Notes under the pieces: generated by a model
What the model saw: the letters and a program-made list of their open reading frames with translations, nothing else
What the model was told of the DNA's origin: nothing
Databases searched by the model: none
Made by a program: the position numbers and the translations under genes
Shown here: positions 17,160 to 43,963 of the stretch, one piece after another
How the letters are laid out: each line of letters begins with the position of its first letter
How positions within the stretch are numbered: position 1 is the stretch's first letter
Virus record (IMG/VR): IMGVR_UViG_3300021431_000081
Span: 64,001-128,000 of that record
Reading direction: 5' to 3' (one strand)
Source of the DNA: a virus
Lineage: Duplodnaviria; Caudoviricetes
DNA: 64,000 nucleotides

Positions 17160-17180
17160 TCAACGCCTCCTTTCTTTATT

Positions 17181-17786: not shown

Positions 17787-17810
17787 AATATATTGTCTCC
17801 TTAAAATATA

Positions 17811-18242: not shown

Positions 18243-18802
18243 TATTCTAATTGTATTCCGTTCACCATTTCCATAATTTCAGGCATTACACCACTAACGG
18301 CATCTAATACTTGCTCCGTTCCTTTGGCAATTCCAATCATAATAGCATCAATAATTTCCTGAGATTGCTTTTGTGAGTTGATATCATCAAAGAAATCTCG
18401 TTTAATGCAATAAAAAACTTTTTTGAATTCTTTAATATCATCTGATGCCAAATCTTCAATCATTTTAAAATCCTTTATTGCACCCATAATTAAATCATAT
18501 TCTTTTGTTGCATCTTCAGTATGCAAATCTAAATTCGTATATAATTCCATAATTGTCCATTGAAATAAGAACAACTCTTTGGATTGATTATGTTTATATT
18601 TATCGTTTTTAAAATGAGCTGTTTGCAATATATAAGTAGCATAGGTCATTTTTTCTGCATAAGGGATATATGCATTTTTATCAATAATTTCACTCATGAT
18701 ACATGCTTTCCTATCATCAGCACTTTCTGCCTCATCATATTTTTTAAGAAAATCAGCAACACTGATTTTTTCAATATTTTCATTATTCATAATTTTACTC
18801 AT
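18242..18802 (-). CDS. Putative tail assembly chaperone
   Basis: 186 aa, acidic and helical; YIPYAEK...AHF...ELYT; lies between tail tube and tape measure. Confidence 0.5.
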   Translation of the reverse strand: MSKIMNNENIEKISVADFLKKYDEAESADDRKACIMSEIIDKNAYIPYAEKMTYATYILQTAHFKNDKYKHNQSKELFLFQWTIMELYTNLDLHTEDATKEYDLIMGAIKDFKMIEDLASDDIKEFKKVFYCIKRDFFDDINSQKQSQEIIDAIMIGIAKGTEQVLDAVSGVMPEIMEMVNGIQLE

Positions 18803-18814
18803 ATCTCGATCCTC

Positions 18815-19381
18815 CTAGTTTTCCTTATATTTAGCACAAACTCCCTCGACTATTTCATCCTGGATCCGGCCTTCCATTGCCTTACGAAGAATTGAACAGT
18901 TTCTATCATACCGTTTACAGGTTTTGCATTTATCTTCAAAATAATCAGCGGAAGCTTGATTATCAAACACTCCTACAAAATCTACAGGATAAATAGTCAA
19001 TTCAATATGTGGATTTTTATTATCGTACATAACCTTTAAAATGCGATTACAAACCATATTATCATCTAACCAAACCACACCAGAATCTGTAATAGCATCA
19101 GAAATGCACTTATCATAATTAGCGCAATCCATATCGGTCCTTGGAAAATAATAAACCGCATCAACATAATAATGCTGATACGGATTTTCACTTTTTATCC
19201 AACCTTGTTTTTTCGCCTCTTGTTTTACATATTCTGTAAATCGTTTCTGGAAGTCTTTCGCTTCTTTTGTCTTATAGGACATTGCCATAGGTTTTCCATT
19301 TTTATACATTACACGATATGCAAGATAGTGATTCACTGAAATGAATTCATTTACGGTGAGTTTTAATACTTGCTTTTCCAT
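18815..19381 (-). CDS. rusA: RusA-family Holliday junction resolvase with C-terminal Cys cluster
   Basis: SVNHY near the N-terminus; DCANYDKCISDA and WLDD match the RusA DxxNxxKxxxD...DD pattern; CKTC...C...C tail. Confidence 0.8.
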   Translation of the reverse strand: MEKQVLKLTVNEFISVNHYLAYRVMYKNGKPMAMSYKTKEAKDFQKRFTEYVKQEAKKQGWIKSENPYQHYYVDAVYYFPRTDMDCANYDKCISDAITDSGVVWLDDNMVCNRILKVMYDNKNPHIELTIYPVDFVGVFDNQASADYFEDKCKTCKRYDRNCSILRKAMEGRIQDEIVEGVCAKYKEN

Positions 19382-19394
19382 AACTCACCACCAA

Positions 19395-19796
19395 TCAATA
19401 AATATATCCTTCAAGAGTAAATACAGATTCTGTATTCGAACTATCTGGATCAAGATTGGCATATACATCAAACGATATCATGGTCATTTCACATGGAAAA
19501 TCCCAAACATAAGACTGTTCATGCCAATCATTGATAGGAATGAACCGTCCTTTCTCTCCAATTATCTTTATATTAATAATTTTACCTTTGGCATTTAATA
19601 ACATTGGTAAAAAACCTATAGATTTAAATTCAATTGTATTAATATCCCGTCTTTGATAATTGATAGTAAAATTATTTACTTCACTTAAAACTATAGATTT
19701 ACCATTTTCATAATTTAATATTACTTTTACACTGGTATCCCCAGTAATAAATGTTTGATTTTTTATAGGCTCAAATGTCATATTTTTCTCCTTCAT
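19395..19796 (-). CDS. Hypothetical protein
   Basis: 133 aa ORF co-oriented with the operon; probable start at the internal MTFEP after an AAGGAG RBS. Confidence 0.6.
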   Translation of the reverse strand: MKEKNMTFEPIKNQTFITGDTSVKVILNYENGKSIVLSEVNNFTINYQRRDINTIEFKSIGFLPMLLNAKGKIINIKIIGEKGRFIPINDWHEQSYVWDFPCEMTMISFDVYANLDPDSSNTESVFTLEGYIY

Positions 19797-19833
19797 ATTC
19801 CGATACTGTAGTTCTAACCCTACTATTCAATTT

Positions 19834-19878
19834 AAAAAAGCCATGATATAATCCCCATTAAGGAGGCATATCATGACA
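19834..19878. promoter_or_regulatory. Dual element: minus-strand terminator overlapping a plus-strand extended -10 promoter and RBS
   Basis: CATGATAT...ATATCATG stem next to an A6 tract; TG-A-TATAAT at 19844-19852; AAGGAGG before ATG 19873. Confidence 0.55.
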
Positions 19879-20082
19879 AAACAACAACTAATTGATATAA
19901 TTTCAGAGGCTAATAATTTAGCTTCGTTACACTTTATCGAATTATATAAACAAAATGCTGATTTTATATTGAGCAAAGAAGATAAATACGCTCAATATTT
20001 TGCGTTAGGTTTTACTACATTTAATGCAGTTCAATTAATACTATTCTTTACTTTATATCAAATTTGCGAAATAGAAGAGTAG
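19873..20082 (+). CDS. Small counter-oriented protein with hydrophobic C-terminus (moron-like)
   Basis: 69 aa; own RBS and promoter; fills a gap between minus-strand genes without overlap; YFALGFTTFNAVQLILFFTLY is hydrophobic. Confidence 0.65.
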   Translation: MTKQQLIDIISEANNLASLHFIELYKQNADFILSKEDKYAQYFALGFTTFNAVQLILFFTLYQICEIEE

Positions 20083-20334
20083 TCATACCTCTTTGACCAG
20101 GTCGTAAGAGATCTGAACAGGTATAACCACTAATTCAATATCATCATTTGTTACATGCTTATATTCATCTAGTAACATTTGCGCTATACTTCGATCTTCG
20201 GTGTATAGCGCTTTATTTATGCGTTTATAAAAACAATATTTATACTCACCAGGTTGTTTATACAAATACATGGTAGGAGATGAAACCGTTGCAATTATAA
20301 ATTTTATTTCTTTTAACGTAGGTATTGTATCCAT
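20083..20334 (-). CDS. Hypothetical protein
   Basis: 83 aa ORF with RBS, in operon. Confidence 0.65.
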   Translation of the reverse strand: MDTIPTLKEIKFIIATVSSPTMYLYKQPGEYKYCFYKRINKALYTEDRSIAQMLLDEYKHVTNDDIELVVIPVQISYDLVKEV

Positions 20335-20348
20335 AATCCTTATTCTCC

Positions 20349-20579
20349 TTATAGCAGCTTACGCTCATTCCATAATTGTGACACCTCTTTTGTGTCTTCT
20401 CTATAAAAAACGTATACCAATATATCATTTCCTTCGCAGTCTGAACTAGCATATAAATCTATAGGGTATACATTATGTTTTATATATTTTTTTGCCTGAA
20501 TAGGATTTATGATTCTAACTACTTCACCTAATTCATAATCGCATCCAGTAATATTAGTCTTAATTAGCATCCTATTCAC
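20349..20579 (-). CDS. Hypothetical phage protein
   Basis: 76 aa (VRIINPIQAKKYIKHNVYPIDLY), in operon. Confidence 0.65.
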   Translation of the reverse strand: MNRMLIKTNITGCDYELGEVVRIINPIQAKKYIKHNVYPIDLYASSDCEGNDILVYVFYREDTKEVSQLWNERKLL

Positions 20580-20585
20580 CTTCTT

Positions 20586-21155
20586 TCAAGGAACCAGTTC
20601 ATTACCAAAACTGTCCCAACCCAGTCGTTCACGTCTTGCATACATTTCTAATTTGTTTAAGTTTGGATATAGATTCTCTATCATCTCATAGCTACATTCA
20701 GGTTTCTGGCTGTGATGTTTTGGTAATTCATGGAATACCGAATGATATTTCCCTCTATACTCTTTAGCTACTGGAATGAATTTACCCTTATAAGCATATA
20801 ATAGATATTCGTGACCAAAACGTATTGTAAATGCAGCGGGAATACCGTTAATCTTATCCCAGATCATACGAGAATGAATTTTATATCCCAAATCCTTTAA
20901 AATTTGTTCTGCTTCAAATAAATATTTATCTATAGTCCATAAAAACATCACACAGTCACCCCCCCCTATACAATTTTCAGAGACATATTTTAAATGCTTC
21001 TTAATATCATCCAGTGAGAGAGTAGGGTAATCCAGATCTGTTCCGCTTGAATTTTTTCGGACTGCTTTTTTGCCACCTTTTGTTTGTTTCCAAGGTGGGT
21101 CTGCCAGTATTAAATTATATTTACCATCAATTTGATGAATGTCCGTATATATCAT
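20586..21155 (-). CDS. MT-A70-family adenine methyltransferase
   Basis: ILADPPW, FLW, WDK, HSQKP, LEMYARR and GWDSFGNE motifs. Confidence 0.9.
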   Translation of the reverse strand: MIYTDIHQIDGKYNLILADPPWKQTKGGKKAVRKNSSGTDLDYPTLSLDDIKKHLKYVSENCIGGGDCVMFLWTIDKYLFEAEQILKDLGYKIHSRMIWDKINGIPAAFTIRFGHEYLLYAYKGKFIPVAKEYRGKYHSVFHELPKHHSQKPECSYEMIENLYPNLNKLEMYARRERLGWDSFGNELVP

Positions 21156-21183
21156 TCCTTGTTCTCCTTTCCCTTTTTAGGGC

Positions 21184-21231
21184 AAAAAAGGGGAGCATAA
21201 CCCCGCACAGTGTGCAAAGCTATACTCCCCT
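21184..21231 (-). terminator. Intrinsic terminator upstream of the methyltransferase
   Basis: AGGGGAGUAUAGC...GUUAUGCUCCCCU followed by a U-tract on the minus strand. Confidence 0.6.
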
Positions 21232-21282
21232 ATCAGAATATTTAAAATAAAAAATCACTGTGCAAAATACTATAATCTCTGA

Positions 21283-21603
21283 TTATTCAGTCTGCTCAGA
21301 GTACGCAGTTTTTTTCTTCTTTTTAGTAAACTTAGGATTTTCGATCTTCATAATTTCATCGATTCTTTCTGCAATCACTTCATTATATTTATCAGTTCTT
21401 GTAAGATCATATTCTTTAAGCTGTTCACGAGCCTGATCAATAGTAATTGCTTTTCCTATATAGTTCGAAGTAATTTTATAAATCATTCTACAATTATTAG
21501 AATCAAAAGTAGTCATCCAAGCAGGTTTATCCTTATCTTCACCACAACCCGGACAATAACTATACATTTTTCCGCAAATTGCACATTTTCTATTATTTGC
21601 CAT
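21283..21603 (-). CDS. Hypothetical protein with Cys cluster (CxxC...CxxC...C)
   Basis: 106 aa; AGGAGG RBS; CAICG and CPGC. Confidence 0.7.
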   Translation of the reverse strand: MANNRKCAICGKMYSYCPGCGEDKDKPAWMTTFDSNNCRMIYKITSNYIGKAITIDQAREQLKEYDLTRTDKYNEVIAERIDEIMKIENPKFTKKKKKTAYSEQTE

Positions 21604-21711
21604 GTTAATAATTCCTCCTTAATTCATAGATTCCTCTATGCCTTTATAGAGGAATAGGATTAAATAAGGGTGGACAGGTATGAGCCATCCACCCCTTGTA
21701 TAGACTAATTA

Positions 21712-22808
21712 TTAGTCTTCATCATCATCATCAGCCCAAGTGATGTAGTACAGCAGTTTTTCAGAACCGCAGTAAGAGGACTGCAGAGAACCGCTGAAGT
21801 CTACGGTAGCATCCGTAGTCAGAGACAGAGAAATCTCAGGGCTGATTTGGAAGGACGGGAAGGTAATATACATTGCCTTGAGCGTATTGACAGAACACGG
21901 ATCGATAGCGAGCGCTTTTACAGTCAATTTAATAGTTCCAGGGAATTTGTCAGACTCATTAACGATCTTTGCACCAGTATTAACGGTACGATCATATTTA
22001 ACAATATACTGTTCAATACCAGTAGTATTAGGAGGTGTAAGCGTTGTTACACCATCGACAGTGGTAATATTATAAGCAGTTAAGTCATAAGTCTGTCCCA
22101 TACCACCAGAGGTATTCATATCAGAAACCTGAATAGTACCTTCAATAAAACCAGTGATATCAAGGGTTTCACCCTTCTTCACAACAGCAATACGAGGCAT
22201 TACAATAGTATGAGATGTGGTAGCCATCTCAGCATCCGTACCAGAAGCAGTAGCCAGAGCGGAGAAATTAATCATTGCTTCTGTAGCGGTAACTTCGCCA
22301 GTTTTTGCCTGCCAAAAGCGTTTTCAATTTCTGTTACTTCTATGACCTATTATGAATATAAAAATGCAAATAATAGGCGAGTAAGTATTTCTACTTACTT
22401 CTCACATTTCATTTTTTTTAGATTATAGTGTGAGTTCAGACTGTATATTCATCCTTATAAAAATAAGGAGAGCCACTTCAATATATATGTCACCATATAT
22501 ATCCTGCAGTCGTTACGGATTCTCTCATATAAAGAGTCTTTCCTCGGTCTTGTCCATCTCTGGAGTTTAACCGATATAGTGGCTTTTTAATTATGTATTA
22601 CTACATAACCTGGCAAAACTTATACCAGAGTGCCTTGGGCATCAACAGCGTCTTTAGATTCAGCAGTAATATCAACAGTAAAATTATTTAACTGAGACAT
22701 CAGCAGTACAGGTACATCAGTATCTACACCATTAACTTTCTTTGTCATTTCACCGTAGGCGAATTGTACTCTGTCCACGATGATGTCACCAAGCATGAAC
22801 TGTGCCAT
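21712..22808 (-). CDS. Major tail (tube) protein, two exons (22808-22624, 22324-21712), 265 aa
   Basis: ATG 22808 with AAAGGAG RBS; splicing gives ...DAQGTLV|KRFWQAKTGEVTATEAMINFS...; beta-rich, Thr-rich; acidic tail; tail-module position. Confidence 0.8.
22325..22623 (-). ncRNA. Group I intron (299 nt, no ORF) in the major tail gene
   Basis: Guide GUUUU-GCCAG pairs 5' exon CUGGU (U.G wobble) and 3' exon AAAAC. P3 GCCACU/AGUGGC; R CCGUAACGACUG; S AUAUACAGUC; terminal G at 22325. Confidence 0.92.
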
Positions 22809-26381: not shown

Positions 26382-26918
26382 TTAATTTAAGAATGAAGAT
26401 AATAAATTTAATTCCGTTCCAAAGAAATCATCCAACGCCTTAATTTTTCTTACACTGTCAAGCTGACCATTAGCGATTTGTGTTGACGCAATATTTTTTA
26501 AAGAATTTAAAGCGTTAGGAGGAAGAGTCTTCATAGTAGCAATCATATCATTATCTTTTAATTCTAAAACCTGTTGTAAATCTTCAACAGTATACTGTTC
26601 ATCATAGAATTTTCTTAATTGAGGAAATTCATTAATGAAATCTTCATCTTCAATAACAAATAACGGTCCAAAAATATAGGAAGACTTACTGCGAACTGAA
26701 GAGACTAAATCTCTATATTCGACTTCAGTTTCATCGCCGTAGTCTACCCAATTATAAGTAATATTCGACTTTGCACCAGTATACCAAAGACCACCAACAG
26801 TAATGGATCGACACATGATTCCATCTTCCTGTGCAAACTTCTTTTTCACAATATTATCTTCTTTTTCTTCTTTTATTTTTTCTACTCGTCTAGGAGTAGA
26901 AGTAATCTTTCCAGTCAT
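26382..26918 (-). CDS. Hypothetical protein (post-capsid gene)
   Basis: 178 aa with RBS. Confidence 0.7.
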   Translation of the reverse strand: MTGKITSTPRRVEKIKEEKEDNIVKKKFAQEDGIMCRSITVGGLWYTGAKSNITYNWVDYGDETEVEYRDLVSSVRSKSSYIFGPLFVIEDEDFINEFPQLRKFYDEQYTVEDLQQVLELKDNDMIATMKTLPPNALNSLKNIASTQIANGQLDSVRKIKALDDFFGTELNLLSSFLN

Positions 26919-30605: not shown

Positions 30606-32162
30606 TTAAGATTTCGCTTTATCTCTTTTTTCTGCAGATTCATCTCCAGTATCTGTTGGCGTATCAGACTTAGGTCTACCACCAGTCACAGGATCTGTTC
30701 CATCTGTAACTGTACCAGAATTAGTAAATGAAGAATTAAGAGGATAGATCATTACATCCTGCAGTTTAAGAACTTCGTTCTCCAAGAAAAGCATAGCCAG
30801 ACTATCTTTTTCGGAGAATCCATTAAGCGTCATATACGCTAACTTAGTAGGTAATGAATATTGTCCCGCTTTCAGCATATCTTCCTTAAACTGCTCTCTG
30901 GTATATACGGATATGGGGAAGAATTTAACTATACACGGATTGCTACACAGATACCCCAATTGTCTGTTCACGAACGCCTGTGTCTGGGGAAGAAGAGAGG
31001 AGATAGCAAATTCGGTATTTGCAACCTGTGAATATCTAAATGCCTCTGCACCAGATATGGTTTCTCCATTTAAAATCTCTGCACCACCAGTAGTATTTAA
31101 TACTGTTTTAGTAGCATTAGAGACTTTCGTAGTATCACCTGCGGCCTGATCATCAAATGATATAGAATCAAGTTTACCCGGTACTAATGCAGCACTAATA
31201 TAATCAGGTAATGCTTCATTGATCATTCTCTGGAAATAAGCTAATACTAAATCAGGATTAACTTTCCAATCATCTACATCTTCGCCAATGGTTTCCATCT
31301 GCAACCAGATCATTTTATAAATTTCCTGTTCATCCGCAATGGCCTGAATGTCTTCCAGATCAGCTAAGTTAATTAAAGCGTTAAAAGCTGCTAAAAACGG
31401 AGGAAGAACAGTTTCATAATCTTCATAACGGTATTTTAAACAAATCGCATACTCATCTGGTACTGGTTGCCATTTTTCACCTGAACTCTGATACGCTTTA
31501 TACATCTCATCAAAGGGTTCGGGAATATATTCAATTAACTCCTGACGAGATCTCAAATACGTCATATCCATACTGATTGCAAAATCACCTGTAGTATATT
31601 TACCATCAATTCGTGCATAATTGGCAGGAATTTGCCAAATAAATACACCAGTTTCATCTATAAGATAAATTCCATAAAATACATCCTGTATAAAACATGT
31701 AAGGTATATAGTATAGAATTCTTGTTGTAAATGCATTAATTCAATCCAATCGAGTGTTTCCTGATAAGATTTAAGTGTTTTATTTACATCCGCTCCCTTA
31801 ATTAAATCGTATTGAGGAATAACCGATCTTCCATTTAAATAAAACATATTCGCATAAAAATGACATAATCTCATATATGTCATAGAACGATAAAATAAGT
31901 ACCAAGATAAGTTTCTTAGATTTTGTTCATTACTGCCCAAATTACGCATGTATGTACGTAATTGTTCTTTGTTAAAAACACGAATAGCTTTTGTTTGAGT
32001 CTTAGTTACATCTCTCAAACGAATAGCGTTTCTTTGATCTTCTTCATATTTTTGTAATTTTTCTTGGGCTTTCTCGTAATCTTGCACTAATTGTTTTTGC
32101 TGTGCTACAGTTAATCTCGAAGATGCCGAAGCACTCTTCGGAGAAGATTTTACTTGTGCCAT
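30606..32162 (-). CDS. Portal protein
   Basis: About 518 aa from ATG 32162 (AAGGAGGTG RBS); directly after terminase; C-terminal GGRP motif. Confidence 0.8.
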   Translation of the reverse strand: MAQVKSSPKSASASSRLTVAQQKQLVQDYEKAQEKLQKYEEDQRNAIRLRDVTKTQTKAIRVFNKEQLRTYMRNLGSNEQNLRNLSWYLFYRSMTYMRLCHFYANMFYLNGRSVIPQYDLIKGADVNKTLKSYQETLDWIELMHLQQEFYTIYLTCFIQDVFYGIYLIDETGVFIWQIPANYARIDGKYTTGDFAISMDMTYLRSRQELIEYIPEPFDEMYKAYQSSGEKWQPVPDEYAICLKYRYEDYETVLPPFLAAFNALINLADLEDIQAIADEQEIYKMIWLQMETIGEDVDDWKVNPDLVLAYFQRMINEALPDYISAALVPGKLDSISFDDQAAGDTTKVSNATKTVLNTTGGAEILNGETISGAEAFRYSQVANTEFAISSLLPQTQAFVNRQLGYLCSNPCIVKFFPISVYTREQFKEDMLKAGQYSLPTKLAYMTLNGFSEKDSLAMLFLENEVLKLQDVMIYPLNSSFTNSGTVTDGTDPVTGGRPKSDTPTDTGDESAEKRDKAKS

Positions 32163-32252
32163 AGACACCTCCTTGACTTTAAAATTTTAATGGTCTAAAT
32201 AAAAGTGATGGGAGAGTAGCGTAGTGCTACCCCGTATTATTAGAAGTGTATT

Positions 32253-34579
32253 TTAATCCCAACTATTTGGTCGTTTAGCAGGACGAATAATTAATTTATC
32301 TAATAAAGATTGGTTATTGGTCGTAGTACGTTTTTGTGTTAAATGCTTACGTCTCTCTTGTTGTAAAGCATAAGCAAGCATGATAAGGGTATAAAAGCGA
32401 TCGTCCCCTGTGTTAATTTTTATTGCTTCCTTAAAGCAATAAAAATACCGTGGTACTTCCAAGAGTGTCTTTACACTCGACCACGGTTCTCATATTTCAT
32501 TATTAAGTTATAGTATGAAGTTCAGACTGTCGTATCCTCATTTAATCCCTATGAGGTTTGATCACTCAGTCGTTCACGCTGTATTAAAACTTGCGCCTTG
32601 TTGTCCACTTCTGGATTTCCAAGTCAATTAGATCAAATTTTATTTATGTAGTTTATGGATTATACTACATTTGCACAACGTTTTTTATGCAATTTTCCCG
32701 CTTTTTCTGGTGCAAGATCGAATGAATCTCTACCAGATTCCCTTTTCTTACGTACTATGTTAACCGTTTCTTCTTTCATAGCGTCAATATTGGCTAAAGC
32801 CAATTCTTCTTGCCAATCCAGTTTAATTGTCTTAGTATTTACAGATTGTACTTTTGATAATGCTTCATTATATTGCTCTTCATAGTCTTCTTTATTTAAC
32901 TTTTTCTTCTTAAGTTGTTTAGCAATATCCGCTTTCGCATTTTTGAGCTTTTCCTCATCTATATCAAAGACAGTCAAATACCCCTTATTATCATAAGGAG
33001 CGGTAAAGGATATTTTATTCTGATTTACTAACTCGATTAATGCCTCTGCCATTTCAGATTTATACGCTGTCGGTGACATAAGATGAAGTTTATCAACAGC
33101 ATTCGGGAAGCGTTTTACATATTCTGCTGAATACTCTTTATCAATCAGTCCTCTATGCTTTTTACCCGACTTATCTTCCCAGTCTTCCATTAAGAAGTCG
33201 GCAATGTTTACACCACCACCGCCAGAACCTGCATCAATATAGATGCCAATAATATTTCCATAAGCATCTACACCTGCGTTATATCCAAGTATCAATTCCT
33301 TTAAATATTTAATCTGATCAGGAGTTTGCATGGGTGATTTAATCTTTTTTCCTATATCCATAAGATTAAGACAATTACATACCCTCATCTTAATATCATC
33401 ATCACCATTTATATCCTTTTCATGGTATATTTCTCCCACACTAACTACACTGTTATCTCTGGTACGAGCAGGATCATATGCTATAACAAATTTTTTCTCA
33501 CCAGTATCATTGTCTAATAATGGTTTACGGGTCTCCTCATTACGAGTAATTACTCCTCTGCGAATAATGGCATCCGCACCTACATCTGTTGTGAATATGC
33601 AGTAATATTCCCTTCTTGCTTTCTCTGGATTTCTACGCATCTCAGATTCGACCGTAGAACGAGAAAGAAGAGGAGTGATTAATTCTCCACGAAGAGTGGG
33701 CTTAAATGCCTGTTCACAATCTATATGTAAAACTGCAAAATCAGGATTTCCCATGATTTGCTGTTTAGCAAAATCTCTGTATAACTTATAAAATTCAGTA
33801 TCCGTACTGGAAGCAGAAGATATATAAAATTTCTGATATGGAAGATTAGTAGCGAATGTTCTTTGTCTGATTGGATCAATAGATTTGCCAGAGGTGTCTT
33901 TTCCTGTCTTTAAGCTTTTATTGGTTACAGCAAAAGCACCATATACGGCAATCATTTCAGATGATAAAAAACCACACTCATCAAATATAACTGTTCCTCG
34001 CGCTCCCCTGCGAGCGTCTATATTGCTATTGAGAGTTATAGTCTGACTGCCATTATATAGATTATATGAAAATCCATTAGATGAATGACTAAAACCATCA
34101 CCTGCAGCATTTTTGACTTCTACTTCCGCTTTAAAAATATAACCTGTTGAACCACTAAAAGTATCTATATTATCATTAGCAATTTTTTCCAACGTAGTAA
34201 AAGTTTGTTCTGCTTGTCCACCAGTGCCACTGGCAATATAAGTCCAAACGTTACTAAAAGCCATATCCTTTGCCATAGTCTCTAAATCTATTACGGTAGA
34301 TTTACCATAGCTTCGGGTACATACATAAAGTACATTCGGGCAAAACCAAGAACGCTGCACCATCAATGCCTGTCCATCCAATAACTCAATATTAAAAAAC
34401 AAATCTATCATTTGAACAGGATTGCATTGAAAATACTTTTGCATTTTTGCTATCTCTAAAAGCCCATCAATTTTTCTTTGCGAGAGGGGATAATTAATTG
34501 GCTTCACAAAAATGCCGTAATCTTTATAAAAATCTTTATCATAATCATCAGGAACCCATATATTATTCTGAGTTAGCAT
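32253..34579 (-). CDS. terL: Terminase large subunit, two exons (34579-32687, 32405-32253), 681 aa
   Basis: Walker A TRSYGKS, Walker B VIFDE, YISSA, AYDPA (RNase H). Splicing restores LH|DDR, the C-terminal nuclease acidic motif. Confidence 0.92.
32406..32686 (-). ncRNA. Group I intron (281 nt, no ORF) in terminase large subunit
   Basis: P1 UUGCAU/GUGCAA with U.G wobble; P10 CGUU/GACG; P3 UUGAUC/GAUCAA; R GUGAACGACUG; S AUACGACAGUC; terminal G at 32406. Confidence 0.92.
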
Positions 34580-36092: not shown

Positions 36093-37280
36093 TTATCCCA
36101 GTACAACGGGATAAATTGCTTCAATTCCTTTTTGATTACAAACTAATACAGTTTGTGACGGATCTGACGTCAGGCGATTCTTAACACAAAATTCATCACA
36201 AGAACCGTTAAGACTGCCACACTGTATTACTTTTATACCAGATACTTCATTCATTGCAATATGATGCTTGTGTCCCATAATAATTGCATATGGAAACCTT
36301 CCTATATAAGCACATAATTTTTGAACAGAAGATTCAGATATACCATCAAAATCTCCGTGTACATTAATATATTCTTTTCCATCAATAATAAATGACGAAT
36401 AAGTATCTGTCATCTTTTCAAAACCAACATATACTCCTTTATCATGAGAATGTATTTTACTAATAAACCAAGGAATTATATTATCTAATTTTTCTCCTAA
36501 TAAAGAATCGTCTTTATTTTTTTCTAATCTGCTATGATTACCGGGAACGCTATATACTTCAACAAGATTAAATATCTGTCTCAATTCATATATAAAATCA
36601 CTAATTAATTCACAGGCCAATATAACTTGATCGACTGTATTTTCTCTATTTGATATTTGAACCGATACATGAATATTTCCTGAAATAAGATCCCCCAACA
36701 AATTTACAATACATCTTGAAGAATTATGTCTGACTGCAATTGTGCCAATTTCAAGAATATAATTAGACAAACGGCGTTTAATATCTTCAACATCAAGTAC
36801 GCCTATATGAAGATCCGATAAATTTACAATTATTGTATTGTTTTTTGATACAAAACCATCATCATCCAAAAATGGATAACGCTCTTTTCCAATATCTTGA
36901 ATTCTTGTTTCTAATAATTGAAGGTTCTCTTCGTATCTTGCTTCTTCACGTAATAATCTATTTAATTCAGTACGTTCATCCTGTAATTTGCGCTTTGCTT
37001 TATATATATCTTGTTCCTTGTTAACCAAAGCCTCCATATTTATATCTGCATTGTTACAGTATTTTTCTCTGCAATATTCTCTTACAAAACTACTCCCTAA
37101 AATACTTCTACTCATAGATTCTGACACACGCCTATAATTATATGGCAAATGATATTTATCAATTATATCTTGCCAGTCATCATCTATAAGTCCATTTACT
37201 TTATCTGAGCAATCTTCTAAAAAACTTTCATATTCATCAGTAGTAAGTCCTACTAATTTTAATTCATTTTCAATATTCAA
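36093..37280 (-). CDS. Calcineurin-like metallophosphoesterase (YonJ-like)
   Basis: SDLH, LGD, GNH, HGD and GHKH motifs. Confidence 0.85.
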   Translation of the reverse strand: MNIENELKLVGLTTDEYESFLEDCSDKVNGLIDDDWQDIIDKYHLPYNYRRVSESMSRSILGSSFVREYCREKYCNNADINMEALVNKEQDIYKAKRKLQDERTELNRLLREEARYEENLQLLETRIQDIGKERYPFLDDDGFVSKNNTIIVNLSDLHIGVLDVEDIKRRLSNYILEIGTIAVRHNSSRCIVNLLGDLISGNIHVSVQISNRENTVDQVILACELISDFIYELRQIFNLVEVYSVPGNHSRLEKNKDDSLLGEKLDNIIPWFISKIHSHDKGVYVGFEKMTDTYSSFIIDGKEYINVHGDFDGISESSVQKLCAYIGRFPYAIIMGHKHHIAMNEVSGIKVIQCGSLNGSCDEFCVKNRLTSDPSQTVLVCNQKGIEAIYPVVLG

Positions 37281-37311: not shown

Positions 37312-37503
37312 TTATACTTCTAATTCAATAACTTCTTCTGTTTTTGTTGTACATGAAATGGTAAAAGTTTCATCCTTATATACTTCCTCTAAACAAGAAA
37401 GAAGATTAACAGGGGCTCCGGTTTCAAATTCCACCAGTTCGCCATCTTTAAACATCAGATCTTTTAATTTAACATCGGTTTTAATTGTACGCTTTGCATC
37501 CAT
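37312..37503 (-). CDS. Small acidic protein (YonK-like by size and position)
   Basis: 63 aa with RBS; just upstream of the phosphoesterase. Confidence 0.55.
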   Translation of the reverse strand: MDAKRTIKTDVKLKDLMFKDGELVEFETGAPVNLLSCLEEVYKDETFTISCTTKTEEVIELEV

Positions 37504-37537: not shown

Positions 37538-37570
37538 AATAAAGGCTGTGAAATATCACAGCCTTTATTA
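37538..37570 (-). terminator. Intrinsic terminator ending the six-gene cassette
   Basis: AATAAAGGCTGTGA-aata-TCACAGCCTTTATT flanked by A/T tracts. Confidence 0.7.
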
Positions 37571-37579
37571 TTCATACAA

Positions 37580-38002
37580 TTATTTATTCTTTTTGATATG
37601 AGCCATAGTCTTTTTGATAGCTTCTTTTACTTCAGTATCATTTGTGCTTTCAAGCATTTCTTCCAACTCTTCTGTCATCTTTTGCATTCCATCATCTCTA
37701 CTTCTTCCTCTTTCATAAGAATCATTATAGGAACGATCATCATAGTATCTGCTATCATCATATCTACGGTTATAGCTACGTCCATCGTCATATCTATCCA
37801 TACGGTATGAACGATTTCCTCTATAACTCCGTGTATCTTCAAAACCATTTTCTTCCATTTCCAAGTACTTCATAAGACTCTTAATGGAATGAGTGATTTT
37901 ATCAATTAATTCTATATCCCTATCTGACCACTGCTTTTTCTCGGCAAATTCAGATAATTCATCACATAATCTATATTTAATTTCATCAACTGCTCTTGTC
38001 AT
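37580..38002 (-). CDS. Cassette gene 6: helical protein with R/Y/D/S-rich low-complexity middle
   Basis: 140 aa; RSYRGNRSYRMDRYDDGRSYNRRYDDSRYYDDRSY. Confidence 0.8.
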   Translation of the reverse strand: MTRAVDEIKYRLCDELSEFAEKKQWSDRDIELIDKITHSIKSLMKYLEMEENGFEDTRSYRGNRSYRMDRYDDGRSYNRRYDDSRYYDDRSYNDSYERGRSRDDGMQKMTEELEEMLESTNDTEVKEAIKKTMAHIKKNK

Positions 38003-38014
38003 ATGCTCCTCCTA

Positions 38015-38485
38015 TTATCGAGTTACAAACAAATCAGGACGTAAGAACGTAATTGATACATTCTGTACTTCGACCGTTTGTGCGCTGATATTTTCTATTG
38101 CAATATTCTCACAACATCCACGAGGAACAGGGACACTAATGGTTCGACTTACATTTTGCAATTGCTGAACTGCTGCAGGAGTTATTGTTACCGTACTTTC
38201 TGGTAGCACTTCCCCATCAATGGCTATTGCTAAACTAATTGATTCTACTGTACCACCAGTAGGAATTTGTACGTTCGCTCCAAAATTAACTAAATACCTT
38301 GCTACATTTTCTTGATTGCAACAACAACGGCTATAAGTATTGGGGACGAACCCTTTTAAAGTGAAGATGCCTGATCCATCTCGATGTATAATCAACCCTC
38401 TTTCACACGGATCTGGAGCATTCGTAAATAAAATGTTTTGTCCAGAAGGAATGGACTGGAGGGCATTTGCACTATATTCTGCCAT
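38015..38485 (-). CDS. Cassette gene 5: beta-rich Cys-containing protein (possibly BclA-CTD/C1q-like)
   Basis: Start refined to ATG 38485 (AAGGAGG), 156 aa; alternating beta pattern; RCCC and GCC. Confidence 0.75.
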   Translation of the reverse strand: MAEYSANALQSIPSGQNILFTNAPDPCERGLIIHRDGSGIFTLKGFVPNTYSRCCCNQENVARYLVNFGANVQIPTGGTVESISLAIAIDGEVLPESTVTITPAAVQQLQNVSRTISVPVPRGCCENIAIENISAQTVEVQNVSITFLRPDLFVTR

Positions 38486-38499
38486 ACGCCAATCCTCCT

Positions 38500-39270
38500 T
38501 TAGGCTCCACATCCACAATTATAATAACCCTGATTGCAATTGCATCCATTATAATTTGGAACTATATAAGCAGGAACAGCAGTAGGATTTAAAATACGAG
38601 TCTGTGCAGCATTATCCGCTAAAATAGCACCAGTCTGAGCATTTTGAGAAGCATCAAAACGTGCATTTGCAATGTCATTACGCAATCCATCAATAGTATT
38701 CTGCATACCAGAAATACGATTCTCATAATTCTGACGAATACCATCTAATTCAAGCTGACACAGTTTATCCATTACCATTTGTACTTTGGCATCAGTATTA
38801 GATCTTATTAAGGCCCCTTCATTTGCTACAGCATATTTAACGTCAGCTACGGCTGCTCTATTTTCACAACAACATGTCTGTTGTGTAGTTGCCATATTAT
38901 TAAGTTGAGTTATTAACCCCATCTGATTATTATTTAAAGCCTGTAAAACATTTGCCTGTCCGTTGCAACGACTTACTTCAGCATTAGCAAATCCAGTAGA
39001 CATACCAGAATTAATAGTGCTTAATCCATTCATAATAGCAGCCTGATCAAAGCCACTCTGTACCGCCGAAGTATTTCCCATCATAGGATAAGGATAAGGA
39101 TATCCATTATAGCCACCATTATTACCATTATTATTCCATCCACCCATTAAAGCGAATAAGAATAAAACCCAAATCCAAATTGATCCATCATTACCCCAAC
39201 CATTATTACCATTATTACCAGTAATTGCTGCGATATCTGCAGGCCCCATAGAATCAGAAACAATAGACAT
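38500..39270 (-). CDS. Cassette gene 4: Gly/Asn-rich, single hydrophobic segment, coiled coil, Cys-rich
   Basis: Start refined to ATG 39270 (GAAAGGAG), 256 aa; IWIWVLFLFALMGGW; CCCENR; C-terminal GCNC...CGCGA. Confidence 0.8.
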   Translation of the reverse strand: MSIVSDSMGPADIAAITGNNGNNGWGNDGSIWIWVLFLFALMGGWNNNGNNGGYNGYPYPYPMMGNTSAVQSGFDQAAIMNGLSTINSGMSTGFANAEVSRCNGQANVLQALNNNQMGLITQLNNMATTQQTCCCENRAAVADVKYAVANEGALIRSNTDAKVQMVMDKLCQLELDGIRQNYENRISGMQNTIDGLRNDIANARFDASQNAQTGAILADNAAQTRILNPTAVPAYIVPNYNGCNCNQGYYNCGCGA

Positions 39271-39427
39271 AACGTCTCCTTTCAAGAATAAGTGAAATAG
39301 TTACTTAACCTTGCGCTTGGTTAATGTCCATTTATTCCTTGATTCCTGTTCATCCTCAATATAATATTAAAATTCATCCATTTGAGATAATACTATATAT
39401 CTATACATTATTAAAAACAAATAATTT

Positions 39428-39655
39428 TTATCTTGGCATCATCTGACTTAATTGTTGCGCCAGTTGAAAAACCTGTTGAAACTGATTTTGATTCATTTGT
39501 CCTGAATTAAGCATATTTTGAACCTGTTGCTGACATTGTTGATTATAAGTACTTGGATTACCGGGTAACCCATTTTTAAAAGAATTAAACTGTTGCATTA
39601 AAGACGCCATACCACCAAAAGTATTTAAAAAATTATTCATAGATGGATTAACCAT
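39428..39655 (-). CDS. Cassette gene 3: small Q/N/M-rich protein
   Basis: 75 aa; QQQVQNMLNSGQMNQNQFQQ; overlaps gene 2. Confidence 0.75.
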   Translation of the reverse strand: MVNPSMNNFLNTFGGMASLMQQFNSFKNGLPGNPSTYNQQCQQQVQNMLNSGQMNQNQFQQVFQLAQQLSQMMPR

Positions 39656-40199
39656 TGTTTGACCGTTCCTTTCTAGGACGAGACTGATTTTGTCCTACTT
39701 TTTGACTTTGTAAAAAATCAGACAATTGATTCTTTAATTCATTAAATTCCTCACGAGTAATTGTTGAATTATCCGTTTCATTAATTGCTGTAGAAGTAGA
39801 AGAATCAGTTATTACTTGTGTGGGCGCAGGAATAGTATTAATTTGATTCTGATATTGAACAAATACTTCCTGATAGGTAAATTCTCTTAATGGTAATGCC
39901 ATACCAAATGCATCAGTGGCTTTAATATAAAATTTTGATTGATCTTGAGTATCAAATAAATACACTGTTGTATTTGATGACATTACTGGATATACACTCG
40001 CCCCCATTCTTCCTTGAACAAAACCAATACTAATAGGCATAGAATTATTCATAGAAGAAGAAATAATATTGTTTACAGGTGTATAAGCATTATTATAATT
40101 ATTTCTATTCGCCTGTGTTACGTTATTTTGTGAGATATTCATATAACGATTTTGATTATTAAAATCATTAAAGCCCATATCCATAACTATTTCCTCCAA
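39648..40199 (-). CDS. Cassette gene 2: N-rich N-terminus, beta core, short C-terminal coil
   Basis: About 180 aa; FVQG...FD...FYIKATDAFG...ITREEFNELK. Confidence 0.75.
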   Translation of the reverse strand: MEEIVMDMGFNDFNNQNRYMNISQNNVTQANRNNYNNAYTPVNNIISSSMNNSMPISIGFVQGRMGASVYPVMSSNTTVYLFDTQDQSKFYIKATDAFGMALPLREFTYQEVFVQYQNQINTIPAPTQVITDSSTSTAINETDNSTITREEFNELKNQLSDFLQSQKVGQNQSRPRKERSNNG

Positions 40200-40558
40200 T
40201 AAAAAATCACGGGTTCATCACCTGAATCCCACGAATCATAATAATTTCCATCAATTATTGTAATTGCATGTGATTCGCTCCCTACAACATAAGTCCCATA
40301 AGGATGATCATAACAGAAATCTATTACTGAATAACAATTAGGACATGAATTTGATATAATATATCTATCATATCCTTTATTTCGTAAATATGCTCCCCAT
40401 ACTTCACTTTCTGAAGGCATCGCTCCCATTAAATATCCTTCTATAGCTAATTCAACATAAGTCTTATCCCAACTTTGATGTAATGCTTTTGATAACGCTC
40501 TAACAACACAATCACCAGTCCTCTGATGATATGGATTTGGATTATACTTTTTAAACAT
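40187..40558 (-). CDS. Cassette gene 1: putative papain-like (C39-like) cysteine peptidase
   Basis: 123 aa; NPNP..GDCVVRA (Cys), SHAITI (His) and YYDSWD (Asp) in catalytic-triad order. Activity is inferred. Confidence 0.55.
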   Translation of the reverse strand: MFKKYNPNPYHQRTGDCVVRALSKALHQSWDKTYVELAIEGYLMGAMPSESEVWGAYLRNKGYDRYIISNSCPNCYSVIDFCYDHPYGTYVVGSESHAITIIDGNYYDSWDSGDEPVIFYWRK

Positions 40559-40575: not shown

Positions 40576-40758
40576 TTAAGTGTATGTATAAGTGACTTCA
40601 TTTTCCTTATATTCCTTTAATACACGTAAAACTTTAGGATCTTCAGTTAAATAATACCTTTTTGCTCGACCTTTATGAGTAATACTAGAAATATGGATTA
40701 AATATCCAAATTTTTTACTTCGCAAATAATTTGCTTCGTTTTGTGTAATTTGAATCAA
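40576..40758 (-). CDS. Small basic hypothetical protein (60 aa)
   Basis: TTG 40758 with AAGGA RBS; the longer track ORF overlaps tRNA-Pro. Confidence 0.6.
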   Translation of the reverse strand: MIQITQNEANYLRSKKFGYLIHISSITHKGRAKRYYLTEDPKVLRVLKEYKENEVTYTYT

Positions 40759-40808
40759 ATTGAATTCCTTCTTTTCATTATATTTCTTCCTATTAATAAG
40801 AAAGATAG

Positions 40809-40882
40809 TTGGAGTAACAGGATTTGAACCTGCGATTTCCAGATCCCAAATCTGGCGCTTTACCAAACTAAGCCATACCCCA
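40809..40882 (-). tRNA. tRNA-Pro (UGG), CCA not encoded
   Basis: Acceptor UGGGGUA/UACUCCA; anticodon arm CCAGA-UUUGGGA-UCUGG; T-loop UUCAAAU; discriminator A. Confidence 0.9.
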
Positions 40883-40932: not shown

Positions 40933-41205
40933 TTACTGCACACCATCTTTAAACTTCTTACCAAATTTTACCTTCGGTACATATTTTGCAGGAACTGCTA
41001 CAGATTCGCCCGTGCGAGGATTTCTAGCTACACCCGCTTCTTTATATTTTCTTGTGAAAGTTACACCATCAAATACATGAACTTCATTACCTGCCTTAAG
41101 ATCATCAATAATAACCTTCTCAGCAGATTCAAATACAACCTTGGTATCCTTAATAGTCATTCCTGTTTCGGCAGCTACTGCCTTATAAAAATCAATCTTT
41201 AACAT
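40933..41205 (-). CDS. hup: HU-family DNA-binding protein (YonN-like)
   Basis: 90 aa; ARNPRTGE...VPA...PKVKFGK arm motif. Confidence 0.92.
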   Translation of the reverse strand: MLKIDFYKAVAAETGMTIKDTKVVFESAEKVIIDDLKAGNEVHVFDGVTFTRKYKEAGVARNPRTGESVAVPAKYVPKVKFGKKFKDGVQ

Positions 41206-41386: not shown

Positions 41387-43963
41387 TTAATGATCCGCCA
41401 TTTTAAAACACTGTAAAAAGCATCGTTTATTAACGTTATACAAAGCTTTTAATAATACAGATCGATTTTTTTCTAATCTTGTTTGCAATTTAGCATGAGC
41501 AATTTTATCTTTAAAGAACGCTCTTGTTATTAAATGTGACATTAGTCCTAAATAATTCTTAGAAATATAAATTTGATGAATATCATCTATTAACTGGTCA
41601 AAATTATTCTTGAAAATATAATAGTCTTCATTATCATCATCGTCATCTTGAACAAATAATAATTGTTTTAAAGAATATTTTTCAATTAACTTTTCAACTC
41701 TTCTAGACAATCTATGATGTTCAGTTAATTCATGTTTCACAAAGAAATAACTCATAGGAAGTGTATCATTAACTGGTTTGTAGGAATCTACTTTCATCTT
41801 ATATATATAATTCATGGGACAACGTAGTGACTTGTTGATTTTATTTTTATCAAACCCCGGCCTTATAGCACACCAGAATTTGGGATATCCTCTTTTATCT
41901 ACTTGTAACAAGTTTTTTAAACGTTGGATTTCGTTTGTAATATCTATATCATATTTACGTTTGGAATTATCTATAGCACATTGCGCTAAAACAGATAATA
42001 TACAAACACTGTCATAACAAATTGGATCTTTAAAATTATAAGTATAGGATAAAGCAATTTGAGCAAGGTTACTGGACTCCCCTATCGCTCTCTGGGATGC
42101 TGCCAGATTATTATCAATTCTAGCAAAATCTGATGGAGTGTTATTATAATGATTGGCTTCTTTAGGAATATTGTTAACTATAGTAGGATATTCTTTATAA
42201 AATTTCTTCGCTGCTTTTACAATAGATGACTGATTGGTTACGTAAAGTGAGTCACTGTCCTGATCACTTCCATTATTTCTATCTTGTGCATCTGTACCAA
42301 TCATATTTATTGCAATTATTTGTTTACCAAAAGTAAAATACTTTTTTAGCCTGTCATCATAATGATTATGCAGATGATCCATATTATTCCTACTATTAAA
42401 CGGACTTCGGAATCCTGCTAAGTACTCCCCGTCCTTAAACCTTTCTGTATAACATTGTATTGCTCCATCTTCAGGTAGAAGAGTAGTATCTTTATTCACA
42501 TCTTCTCCCACAGATGCCAGTAACATAGCGTAAGGCGAACCCACTATTACTAAATTATCTGCATCTTGTATTAACTTACCATTCTTTATCTCTTTTAAAT
42601 AATTATATATAATTCTTTTCTTTCTCTCTCTAAAATAATCACATCTAACAAATTCAGGATTATGCTCTACTAATGCTACCAATACTTCAAAGTCATTCGA
42701 AAAATTCTCATTTTTAATCAAATACTCCATAAAAGTATGATCATCTTTTTTTAACTTCATTATATAATCAACTGTACATTTACAGGTTTCTTCCATTGTA
42801 TCTATATCCAAAGCATTGATCATTTGATAACTCATACGTTGTACGTCACCAAATTTACTTTTATGTGCGGTTTTAACTATTCCAAATTTACAACCATTCG
42901 CTCTTACCCATTTAGACCAATAATTAAAGTCAACTTTGAATTTAATCCATTTCATGGCGTTATCCGTTGTAATTAACTTTATTTTGCTAACTTTTACATC
43001 TCTACCCCACATATCTTTTATAATGGCAGTTTCATATTCATCTCCGAAATATTCTTGCATAAATAGCTGAATATTAGATCTAAAAGCAGCCATTTTAGTA
43101 AAATGATGACGTAAAAGAATATATCCTTTACCCCATTCTGGGAAGATACTTTCATCAATTAATGCCTGACCATCAAATAAAGTATTTTTTACTTTATAAT
43201 TATCTTTTTTTATAGCCTGACAATGTTTGTTCTCGTCCAACTCTACACTTATTACTTGAGTATTAAAGAAGGAATCAATATCTTTTATAACCAATATCTG
43301 ATCAGGATCAATCACAATATGATCAACAATAGTACTGGTTGATAACGAAGAATACGCCCCTATTTCAACAATAGGAGCGTTCGTATCTGGCAGCTGTAAT
43401 CCCATCCGAAGAAAATTAATTGCTTTGTCATACAATTTATCTCGTATAAACATACAAGATCCTTTCTTCGCTTTTCCCGGTGTTCTATATGCCATTTTAT
43501 AGTGTATTACATCGTATCCTGTAATTTCTTTTTTTCTATTAAATTTAGGATATTCAATATTTAAGCCATCCTGATAAAATATTTCTCTAATTTCCTGCCT
43601 GGTTTTTCTTTTGAATTTATCTTTATTATCTTTGACTTTTTCTTTAACTAGATTTAATGTTTCAAGCCTTTTTTGCTTATCTTCATCACTCAGATTTTTA
43701 TCTTTCTTAGCTTTTTTAATACGCTCATCTATTGCTTTTATTTCTTCTTTGTAAGTATGTGTGCCATAATCAAATTGAACACATATTACATCCCGTGTTG
43801 ATTCATCTTTCCAAACTTCCAAACCATTCTCTTTTAGAAAATCAAGGAATAAACTATTGGTTAACATAGCTTCAGTGGCATCATACTGATCACGTATTCC
43901 AAGATCATATCCATATATAGAACCTGCTTGGTAGTTGTTTATTTTATAACCATATTGGCCCGT
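41387..43963 (-). CDS. YonO-like single-subunit (two-barrel) DNA-dependent RNA polymerase; probable ACG start at 43963 (858 aa), first ATG at 43867
   Basis: DGQ, FRSPFN and NGSDQDSD (DxDxD) motifs; next to HU and the late genes, as yonO-yonN in SPbeta. Confidence 0.85.
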   Translation of the reverse strand, partial: TGQYGYKINNYQAGSIYGYDLGIRDQYDATEAMLTNSLFLDFLKENGLEVWKDESTRDVICVQFDYGTHTYKEEIKAIDERIKKAKKDKNLSDEDKQKRLETLNLVKEKVKDNKDKFKRKTRQEIREIFYQDGLNIEYPKFNRKKEITGYDVIHYKMAYRTPGKAKKGSCMFIRDKLYDKAINFLRMGLQLPDTNAPIVEIGAYSSLSTSTIVDHIVIDPDQILVIKDIDSFFNTQVISVELDENKHCQAIKKDNYKVKNTLFDGQALIDESIFPEWGKGYILLRHHFTKMAAFRSNIQLFMQEYFGDEYETAIIKDMWGRDVKVSKIKLITTDNAMKWIKFKVDFNYWSKWVRANGCKFGIVKTAHKSKFGDVQRMSYQMINALDIDTMEETCKCTVDYIMKLKKDDHTFMEYLIKNENFSNDFEVLVALVEHNPEFVRCDYFRERKKRIIYNYLKEIKNGKLIQDADNLVIVGSPYAMLLASVGEDVNKDTTLLPEDGAIQCYTERFKDGEYLAGFRSPFNSRNNMDHLHNHYDDRLKKYFTFGKQIIAINMIGTDAQDRNNGSDQDSDSLYVTNQSSIVKAAKKFYKEYPTIVNNIPKEANHYNNTPSDFARIDNNLAASQRAIGESSNLAQIALSYTYNFKDPICYDSVCILSVLAQCAIDNSKRKYDIDITNEIQRLKNLLQVDKRGYPKFWCAIRPGFDKNKINKSLRCPMNYIYKMKVDSYKPVNDTLPMSYFFVKHELTEHHRLSRRVEKLIEKYSLKQLLFVQDDDDDNEDYYIFKNNFDQLIDDIHQIYISKNYLGLMSHLITRAFFKDKIAHAKLQTRLEKNRSVLLKALYNVNKRCFLQCFKMADH

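Follow-up and report, generated by a model that had tools for sequence, protein, structure and literature searches.

A recurrent six-gene phage cassette with a predicted papain-fold peptidase, coiled-coil rod and TNF/C1q-type knob

What do six small genes placed between the HU gene and the packaging genes of a large phage build, and do they belong together at all? The genes in question lie at 37580-40558 on the minus strand of a 64,000-nucleotide (nt) stretch of viral DNA (positions 64,001 to 128,000 of IMG/VR record IMGVR_UViG_3300021431_000081; hereafter the window), which is part of a 156-kb SPbeta-like phage. All six are co-directional, with HU/tRNA-Pro on one flank and packaging genes on the other. 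An earlier note, made from the letters of the window, had described them as six tightly packed genes with their own terminator; all six minus-strand open reading frames (ORFs) and the terminator (37569-37538) are present, and the note's account of composition and motifs was accurate on recount. The reading that we favour, tentatively and at slightly less than an even chance, treats them as a single copy of a portable accessory cassette that travels among phages of gut and rumen Bacillota and would build a membrane-anchored rod carrying a knob. The parts of the cassette in the window are as follows.

40187-40558, minus: g1, 123 amino acids (aa); phrog_3754
39648-40199, minus: g2, ORF of 183 aa, likely start M6 (40184); phrog_21718
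39428-39655, minus: g3, 75 aa; phrog_22984
38500-39285, minus: g4 ("rod"), ORF of 261 aa, likely start M6 (39270); phrog_16490
38015-38518 (ORF) and 38015-38485 (gene), minus: g5 ("knob"), 156 aa from M12; phrog_20016
37580-38002, minus: g6, 140 aa
37538-37569, minus: intrinsic terminator closing the cassette (14-bp stem, 4-nt loop, T run)

The start of g5 was placed at M12 because its homologues begin at MAEYSANA, and the sixth-codon starts of g2 and g4 match ESM Atlas records. The genes abut with overlaps or gaps of at most 14 nt, the exception being 142 nt between g3 and g4, and the terminator begins 10 nt past the g6 stop.

Conservation and distribution of the gene string

Relatives of g5 were used as anchors in three collections (deposited phage records, species genomes and IMG/VR contigs), family hidden Markov models (HMMs) were built iteratively from the loci, and counts were made over the 111 loci with enough flank. 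All six genes were found collinear and on one strand in 83 of the 111, which include viral contigs and genomes of gut and rumen Bacillota. A variant without g1 makes up a further 16. g4 stands immediately before g5 in 110/111 loci and g6 directly after g5 in most. g1, where present, is always the first of the string and overlaps or abuts g2; g2 is common to the variants with and without g1. The statement in the earlier note that similar strings occur in other gut phages is thus borne out, both by these 83 loci and by the cultured phage described below. A chance cluster of unrelated ORFs is ruled out by the synteny counts: five of the six proteins match PHROG families (all of unknown function), and 83 of the 111 independent loci keep the string collinear.

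Sixteen deposited phage records contain a g5 relative, among them the cultured Butyrivibrio phage Ceridwen, in which g1, g2, g3, g4 and g5 follow in order and g6 lies one gene further along. Ceridwen is a lytic phage isolated on the non-sporulating Butyrivibrio fibrisolvens DSM 3071. The 73 species genomes with a g5 relative are mostly metagenome-assembled genomes of gut or rumen Lachnospiraceae, Oscillospiraceae, Acutalibacteraceae, Ruminococcus, Blautia and Selenomonadaceae, and a single pattern scan of IMG/VR found at least 567 contigs with one. In the two closest relatives of the window (L003 and L004) the surroundings of the cassette are SPbeta-like as well.

Named families gave little help. 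Scans of all six proteins against Pfam, NCBIfam and PADLOC returned nothing significant, blastn of the region against phage records matched at tRNA-Pro only, and we found no published description of the cassette in the literature.

The knob, the rod and their low-complexity partners

The AlphaFold2 (AF2) monomer model of g5 has a predicted local distance difference test (pLDDT) score of 88.7, and on this model g5 is a stand-alone ten-strand jelly roll of the TNF/C1q type, like the C-terminal domain of BclA. The closest match is the C-terminal domain of F-BclA (9h38; Z 16.8, root-mean-square deviation (rmsd) 1.7 Å over 123 residues; VIA), followed by BclA (1wck, 15.7), EDA (14.5), ExsFA (7r1m, 14.0) and C1q (13.2; all VIA); knobs of phage fibres and spikes score Z about 9-13. 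Foldseek gave a best E of 2.4e-7 and 165 matches at E<=1e-3, with TNF/C1q folds throughout among the matches listed. The BclA-type beta head proposed for this gene in the earlier note therefore stands as a fold. The likeness to BclA and ExsFA is structural only, as g5 matched neither Pfam BclA_C (PF18573) nor C1q at E<=1 and its profile found nothing at E<=10 among all PDB sequences. The noted CCC (residues 54-56) and CC (124-125, both counted from M12) are there as described. Across the family, which has more than 1295 matching clusters at 90% identity, the GCC at 124-125 is invariant and C27 nearly so, and the CCC sits in a loop that varies both in length and in the number of its Cys residues.

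The best-matching system is that of the exosporium and F-type appendages of the B. cereus group (BclA/F-BclA with ExsFA, also called BxpB or ExsF; 9h38, 1wck, 7r1m, 8d02, 9h3d), whose TNF/C1q domains share the predicted jelly roll of g5 at Z 14-16.8 and rmsd 1.7-3.3 Å. ExsFA is likewise a stand-alone domain of ~150 aa, and the parts of both systems are made without signal peptides. In the exosporium system, a Pro-rich peptide of the partner docks in clefts of the trimer (ExsF/F-Anchor; PMC12357932), and BclA loses an N-terminal piece by cleavage; docking and cleavage in the cassette are suggested by analogy. The differences are also clear. The cassette proteins have no detectable sequence similarity to the exosporium proteins and no collagen-like GXY stalk, g4 being instead a predicted coiled coil with a hydrophobic anchor; no NCBIfam leader model, including the exosporium leader TIGR03720, matched g4; and the cassette is encoded by phages, some of which infect non-sporeformers.

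Among the cassette proteins, g4 alone has a hydrophobic segment of membrane type, and no signal peptide was found in the other five. In the window it starts with a leader-like N-terminal peptide (PADIAAITGNN), followed by the single hydrophobic segment (residues 34-48) between Gly/Asn-rich flanks. Next come the motifs VQSGFDQ, CCC(E)NR (its CCC at 138-140) and DKLC, then heptads forming a coil over ~150-240, and last a Pro/Cys tail (PAYIVPNYNGCNC..CGCGA) with CxC...CxC at 248-259; the single hydrophobic segment, the CCC and the Cys tail had all been pointed out before. Over residues 150-240, 17 of 26 a/d positions are hydrophobic. About 800 cluster representatives (50% identity) match the g4 family at E<=1e-3 and share one plan: a conserved N-terminal peptide, of class A ('LSAADIAAVTGNN') or of class B ('MTMPVAP..GG'), precedes a W/I/L/F segment of ~16 residues that is flanked by Gly/Asn-rich stretches, and the motifs VQRGFDQ, CCCENR and DKLC lead on to a coiled coil and a tail. 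This 'PAYxVxNP' tail carries 2-6 Cys in 138/138 non-redundant relatives. The K/R value of g4 is 0.37 before the anchor and 1.29 after it; together with partners that have no signal peptides, this bias mildly favours a topology with the N-terminus out and the rod inside. Searched against all PDB sequences, the profile of g4, like those of g2 and g6, found nothing or weak coiled-coil noise only, and ESM Atlas searches with g4 and g2 found unnamed viral clusters only. Taken as a stalk plus a head, g4 and g5 make the fibre-like reading of the earlier note a reasonable one.

A fused form of g4 and g5 was also observed. Four protein clusters (P0391-P0394) join g4 residues 1-224 to g5 through an in-frame 248-nt deletion at a 5-6 nt microhomology, which takes away precisely the tail of g4 plus the N-terminus of g5. 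This exact loss is suggestive, though it is a single event. The closest relatives of the fusion (L173, L175, L169 and L203) have separate g4 and g5 genes with stops between them. We considered the fusion as a "Rosetta stone" and downgraded it, as the four clusters are >=99% identical and represent one lineage.

Three loci show g4 interrupted or altered in other ways. In L023, assigned to Lachnospiraceae, a group I intron (6263-6564, plus strand; Rfam RF00028, 70.5 bits, E 2.7e-16) splits g4. In L016 the gene is broken by ~1.3 kb with a GIY-YIG-like ORF (4863-5858), where no Rfam match reached the gathering score. In L068 (6126-6965, plus strand; a Clostridia-assigned contig) g4 has two in-frame TGA codons opposite W and R of relatives, which may reflect TGA recoding or errors.

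The remaining three proteins have conserved cores under a biased composition. g2 (N 14%, S 10%, Q 9%) has an N/Q/Y-rich N-terminus, a conserved central domain that reads 'WVQGE..A..Y.V..N..V.LWDS....Y.K..D.SG.P' in relatives, and a C-terminal helix. g3 (Q 23%, N 16%, M 11%) is helical, with the family N-terminus 'NPLFNALGG' and the core 'G.DP...V..LL.SG.ISQ.QLNQ'. g6, rich in D/E/R/K/S/Y with RSY-type repeats, begins with a pair of helices, continues through a low-complexity middle of R/S/Y/D/G and ends in a helix; the one PADLOC row for the six proteins (Cas11a, E 0.0049, a helical low-complexity match) and the one row for a lysis family (a spanin2 model, E 0.088) both fell on g6, below threshold. 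These compositions agree with the earlier note, whereas its label "prion-like" for g2 and g3 is not supported, since each has a conserved core, folded or helical, and the N/Q bias tracks the AT content of the genome.

The peptidase gene and its stand-in

The earlier note had read Cys-His-Asp in papain-like order in g1. The AF2 model of g1, made from a 33-sequence alignment, has a pLDDT of 93.8 and a papain-like fold, and N6, N8, D16, C17, H97 and D108, which include the proposed Cys17, His97 and Asp108, are invariant among the 33 homologues. The top structural matches are clan-CA cysteine peptidases (C39 PCAT1, Josephin, ComA, LahT and staphopain; Z up to 7.0), the C39 domains of PCAT1, ComA and LahT and the Josephins falling at Z 6.5-7.0; YopQ and AvrPphB tie with them at Z ~7. 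On the model, g1 is a minimal papain-fold cysteine peptidase.

The suggested relation to C39 peptidases fared unevenly. At the level of the fold it stands: g1 shares with C39 enzymes (PCAT1, ComA, LahT) and Josephin the papain-like fold, the order Cys...His...Asp and a similar spacing, at 123 aa against ~130-150 aa for C39 and minimal clan-CA enzymes. At the level of sequence, membership of Peptidase_C39 (PF03412) fails, with no Pfam family at E<=1 and an hhalign probability of 0.07 against a true C39 found in locus L011. C39 enzymes also differ in their setting, as no ABC transporter lies in or near the window cassette, and proteolysis by g1 is predicted from the model only. The N-termini of class-A g4 proteins (LSxxDIxxVxGN) do resemble the C39-type leader LSxxELxxIxGG and fit the spacing of a double-glycine leader (hydrophobic at -4, -7 and -12, acidic at -8, Gly at -2), while no bacteriocin-leader model of NCBIfam matched the g4 N-terminus. 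The presence of g1 was also compared with the N-terminal class of g4, and no link supporting g1 cleavage of the class-A leader was seen.

In locus L011 a stand-alone Peptidase_C39 (4615-5031, plus strand; PF03412, E 3.9e-27) lies with three other inserted ORFs directly before g4, and L011 is the only locus with a Peptidase_C39 inside the cassette.

Just past the g6-like gene, 17 of 24 g1-less loci encode a ~105-aa HExxH protein that is seen in 0/72 loci with g1; it gives weak matches to Peptidase_M78, SprT-like and DUF6782. Because the variant that lacks g1 carries this unrelated small peptidase instead, a protease looks integral to the cassette, as the earlier note had supposed. The Peptidase_C39 of L011 is one further case in favour.

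The g1 family is wider than the cassette, as its homologues also occur alone in early regions of Tsamsa-like Bacillus phages, Geobacillus phage GBK2 and Lak megaphages. In Bacillus phage Izhevsk (L013) the lone homologue (9583-9978), annotated as a putative peptidase, lies beside a Ser/Thr kinase gene and an Ocr-like gene; that of GBK2 (L014) is at 26471-26860.

Genomic setting and possible role

The neighbours of the cassette in the window are listed below.

41387-43867, minus: YonO-like RNA polymerase; phrog_8308
40933-41205, minus: HU gene; phrog_379
40920-40893, minus: terminator closing the HU gene
40808-40882: tRNA-Pro(TGG), flanking the cassette
40576-40755, minus: possible extra small gene (~60 aa) between tRNA-Pro and g1
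36093-37280, minus: exonuclease-like gene
32660-34579, minus: large terminase gene
30606-32168, minus: portal gene

The RNA polymerase, exonuclease-like, terminase and portal genes all share the strand of the cassette, and the tail genes (3122-22275) are separated from it by the head and packaging genes. The cassette is within the late region of the window and oriented as the late genes are.

Two small ORFs border the cassette. ORF 40576-40866 (minus strand) overlaps tRNA-Pro, and its conserved C-terminal part of ~60 aa ('..ITQNEANYLRSKKFGYLIHISS..') recurs in the SPbeta-like L003 (3189-3371) and L004 as a small gene of its own, placed between the tRNA and g1. This gene is absent from the cassette versions of small phages; it may be a seventh cassette gene of the SPbeta-like version or a backbone gene. 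Directly past the terminator, a 63-aa ORF (37312-37503, minus strand) is kept in L003 (6979-7200) and L004 (7019-7237); it has no PHROG match and is not conserved in the small-phage versions. In many small-phage versions a conserved 109-aa gene ('MITEQDLQEAIAEC..NANTC..') lies ~16 nt past g6, as in L009 (6969-7298, plus strand) and 21 other loci, Ceridwen among them. The window lacks this gene, which has no match in Pfam.

In small temperate phages the cassette is flanked by the lysis module on one side and the lysogeny module on the other. The genes upstream encode endolysins, amidases and holin-like proteins, with XhlA-type "hemolysin" families among the neighbours; a sigma-70 region 4 or LuxR-type helix-turn-helix (HTH) protein of 67-82 aa is usually encoded 120-260 nt before g1; and XRE-type regulators or repressors, integrases and invertases follow downstream. 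The spot between lysis and lysogeny modules is the usual place for accessory cargo. The backbones range from 40-kb siphoviruses through the 156-kb SPbeta-like phage to large recoded phages, in which a giant fibre-like ORF lies 2-3 genes upstream. With this cargo position, the cassette is portable across unrelated phage backbones, and such portability favours a target common to all hosts, for example the membrane, over a docking site on one virion type.

The recoded phages also bear on when the proteins are made. In the TAG-recoded phages L048, L049, L071, L137 and L073, cassette genes contain in-frame TAG codons, mostly opposite Q of relatives, so the proteins must be made under the altered code of the phage, that is, in lytic growth. 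Translation under an altered code in the lytic phase follows an earlier concept (bioRxiv 10.1101/2021.08.26.457843).

In the reading that we favour, the parts would be produced in the lytic cycle and put together in the cytoplasm. g4 would trimerise into a rod with its N-terminal greasy segment in the cell membrane, the acidic N-tail outside and the rod inside. Its Pro/Cys-rich C-terminal tail would dock onto a g5 trimer, by analogy with BclA and F-Anchor peptides on ExsF, and the Cys clusters may staple this joint by binding metal or through disulfides formed after lysis. The small peptidase (g1 here, the HExxH enzyme in the variant) would trim one partner, the leader-like N-terminus of g4 being the best candidate, while g2, g3 and g6 would serve as assembly helpers. 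The knob might then be a binding module exposed on cell lysis, acting as an adhesin or as a decoy on membrane debris. Beyond folds, motifs and synteny, every step here is one that we infer. A location in the cell membrane is preferred to attachment to the virion because of the portability across virion types and the conserved anchor.

Several observations weigh against this reading. The opposite-strand genes of the recoded phages are TAG-recoded as well, so the stop codons show lytic-cycle translation and not specifically late timing. The charge bias on which the topology of g4 relies is only mild. The Fisher p of ~1e-13 for the exchange between g1 and the HExxH protein is not corrected for shared ancestry. 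The class-A leader of g4 is also found in loci without g1, and class B occurs with g1; the assignment of g4 as the substrate of g1 is therefore weak, a guess. Since g1 homologues stand alone in early regions of other phages, g1 may instead have a host protein as its target. The g4-g5 fusion traces to one recent lineage and may be defective, and no co-variation was seen between the number of Cys in the g4 tail and that in g5 (rho 0.04).

A bolder form of the favoured reading is that the cassette is a self-contained, horizontally mobile device that builds, from within the infected cell, a membrane-anchored, TNF-ligand-like trimer of rod and knob with an interchangeable small protease for its maturation, acting at or after lysis in a way undescribed for phages; this we regard as doubtful. 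Such a device might tether or aggregate progeny and membrane debris, be a receptor decoy, or control late superinfection. Type II membrane ligands of the TNF family (EDA-A1, 1rj7) likewise have a short N-tail, one anchor, a stalk and a TNF-homology head. The parallel is one of layout only: the cassette would use two proteins, probably with the opposite topology (the head in the cytoplasm), in a bacterial and viral setting, and has no sequence relation to the ligands.

An accessory virion fibre is unlikely on present evidence but stays a serious alternative because the knob fold is typical of fibre tips. Here g4 and g5 would form a non-essential whisker, head fibre or side fibre with g5 as its glycan-binding tip, g2, g3 and g6 as chaperones and g1 as a maturation protease. 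TNF/C1q knobs are common at the tips of phage fibres and spikes, and g5 resembles the cyanophage A-1(L) short-fibre CBD (Z 12.9), the A4 portal-tail complex (13.2), TM4 gp23 RBD (9.6), PRD1 P5 (9.4) and the Sf6 needle knob (9.2). The fibres and spikes of PRD1, A-1(L), TM4 and Sf6 also combine a stalk with a C-terminal knob, are phage-encoded and assemble in the cytoplasm, and virion parts, like those of the cassette, are made there without signal peptides. The cassette differs from them in that stalk and knob are separate polypeptides, the stalk has Cys clusters and a membrane-type segment, and the genes form a self-contained set with a protease, placed apart from the tail module (in small phages the set follows the lysis genes; in the window it lies between HU and packaging genes). 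The same cassette in unrelated virion types makes a conserved docking site improbable, and the conserved 16-residue W/I/L/F segment with its aromatic belts would be unusual for a soluble fibre.

Less probable again is a moron-type system for superinfection exclusion or defence, a membrane-anchored complex that would block or sense incoming phages on behalf of a lysogen or an infected cell. In temperate relatives the cassette has the classic moron position, preceded by genes for endolysin, amidase and holin and followed by those for XRE repressors and integrases, and the own terminator, the small HTH gene often found upstream and the combination of a membrane protein with a protease would all suit it. 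Yet no PADLOC-DB 2.0 model was matched significantly by any of the six proteins, the in-frame TAG codons would prevent translation in an uninfected cell with the standard code, and the cassette occurs in the lytic phage Ceridwen and within the late region of the window. Six genes with low-complexity partners also look structural rather than like a sensor and effector.

We consider it improbable, too, that the cassette is an accessory to lysis or release, in which a membrane rod would aid holin and endolysin in the manner of XhlA/BhlA-type proteins, with their transmembrane segment and coiled coil, or of spanins. g4 has this layout, and the cassette adjoins lysis genes, with XhlA-type families nearby, in most small phages. 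In the window, however, it is far from any recognised lysis gene; Pfam and NCBIfam gave no HMM kinship to holins, spanins or XhlA; a TNF-type knob with three low-complexity partners has no precedent in lysis systems; and most of the hosts are monoderm.

To much the same low degree we credit the idea that the genes are not one system, with g1 an independent host-directed enzyme (for example deconjugating or deubiquitinase-like) travelling with an unrelated structural set, g2-g6. The lone early g1 homologues beside such genes as the Ser/Thr kinase and Ocr-like gene of Tsamsa-like phages would fit this idea, as would the equal match of g1 to Josephin deubiquitinases and C39 (Z 7.0 each) and the persistence of g2, g4 and g5 without g1. 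Against it, the loss of g1 is accompanied by another small peptidase in the cassette, and g1 keeps its place at the head of the string.

Decoration of host spores with a BclA/ExsF-like nap or appendage, the link raised in the earlier note, is very improbable: in structure g5 comes closest to proteins of the exosporium and of endospore appendages (F-BclA, BclA, ExsFA/BxpB), Cys richness recalls coat proteins made without signal peptides and many host families (Lachnospiraceae, Oscillospiraceae) include spore-formers, but the phage of the non-sporulating B. fibrisolvens and Selenomonadaceae-assigned contigs carry the cassette, nothing specific to sporulation was seen, the likeness to BclA and ExsFA is purely structural, with no match to BclA_C, the exosporium leader or any PDB chain and no collagen repeats, and the g5 fold is equally common in phage fibres. 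The idea of a virion-protecting inclusion found no support either.

The cassette is among the commoner multi-gene modules without a known role in gut and rumen phages, and knowing its role would annotate thousands of "hypothetical" genes together. It now has tangible parts: a predicted protease with a named catalytic Cys, a knob whose predicted fold is a familiar one, a rod with a single anchor, and in Ceridwen a cultured phage that carries it. Its study could reveal a new phage use of the membrane of the dying cell, or a new class of accessory fibre.

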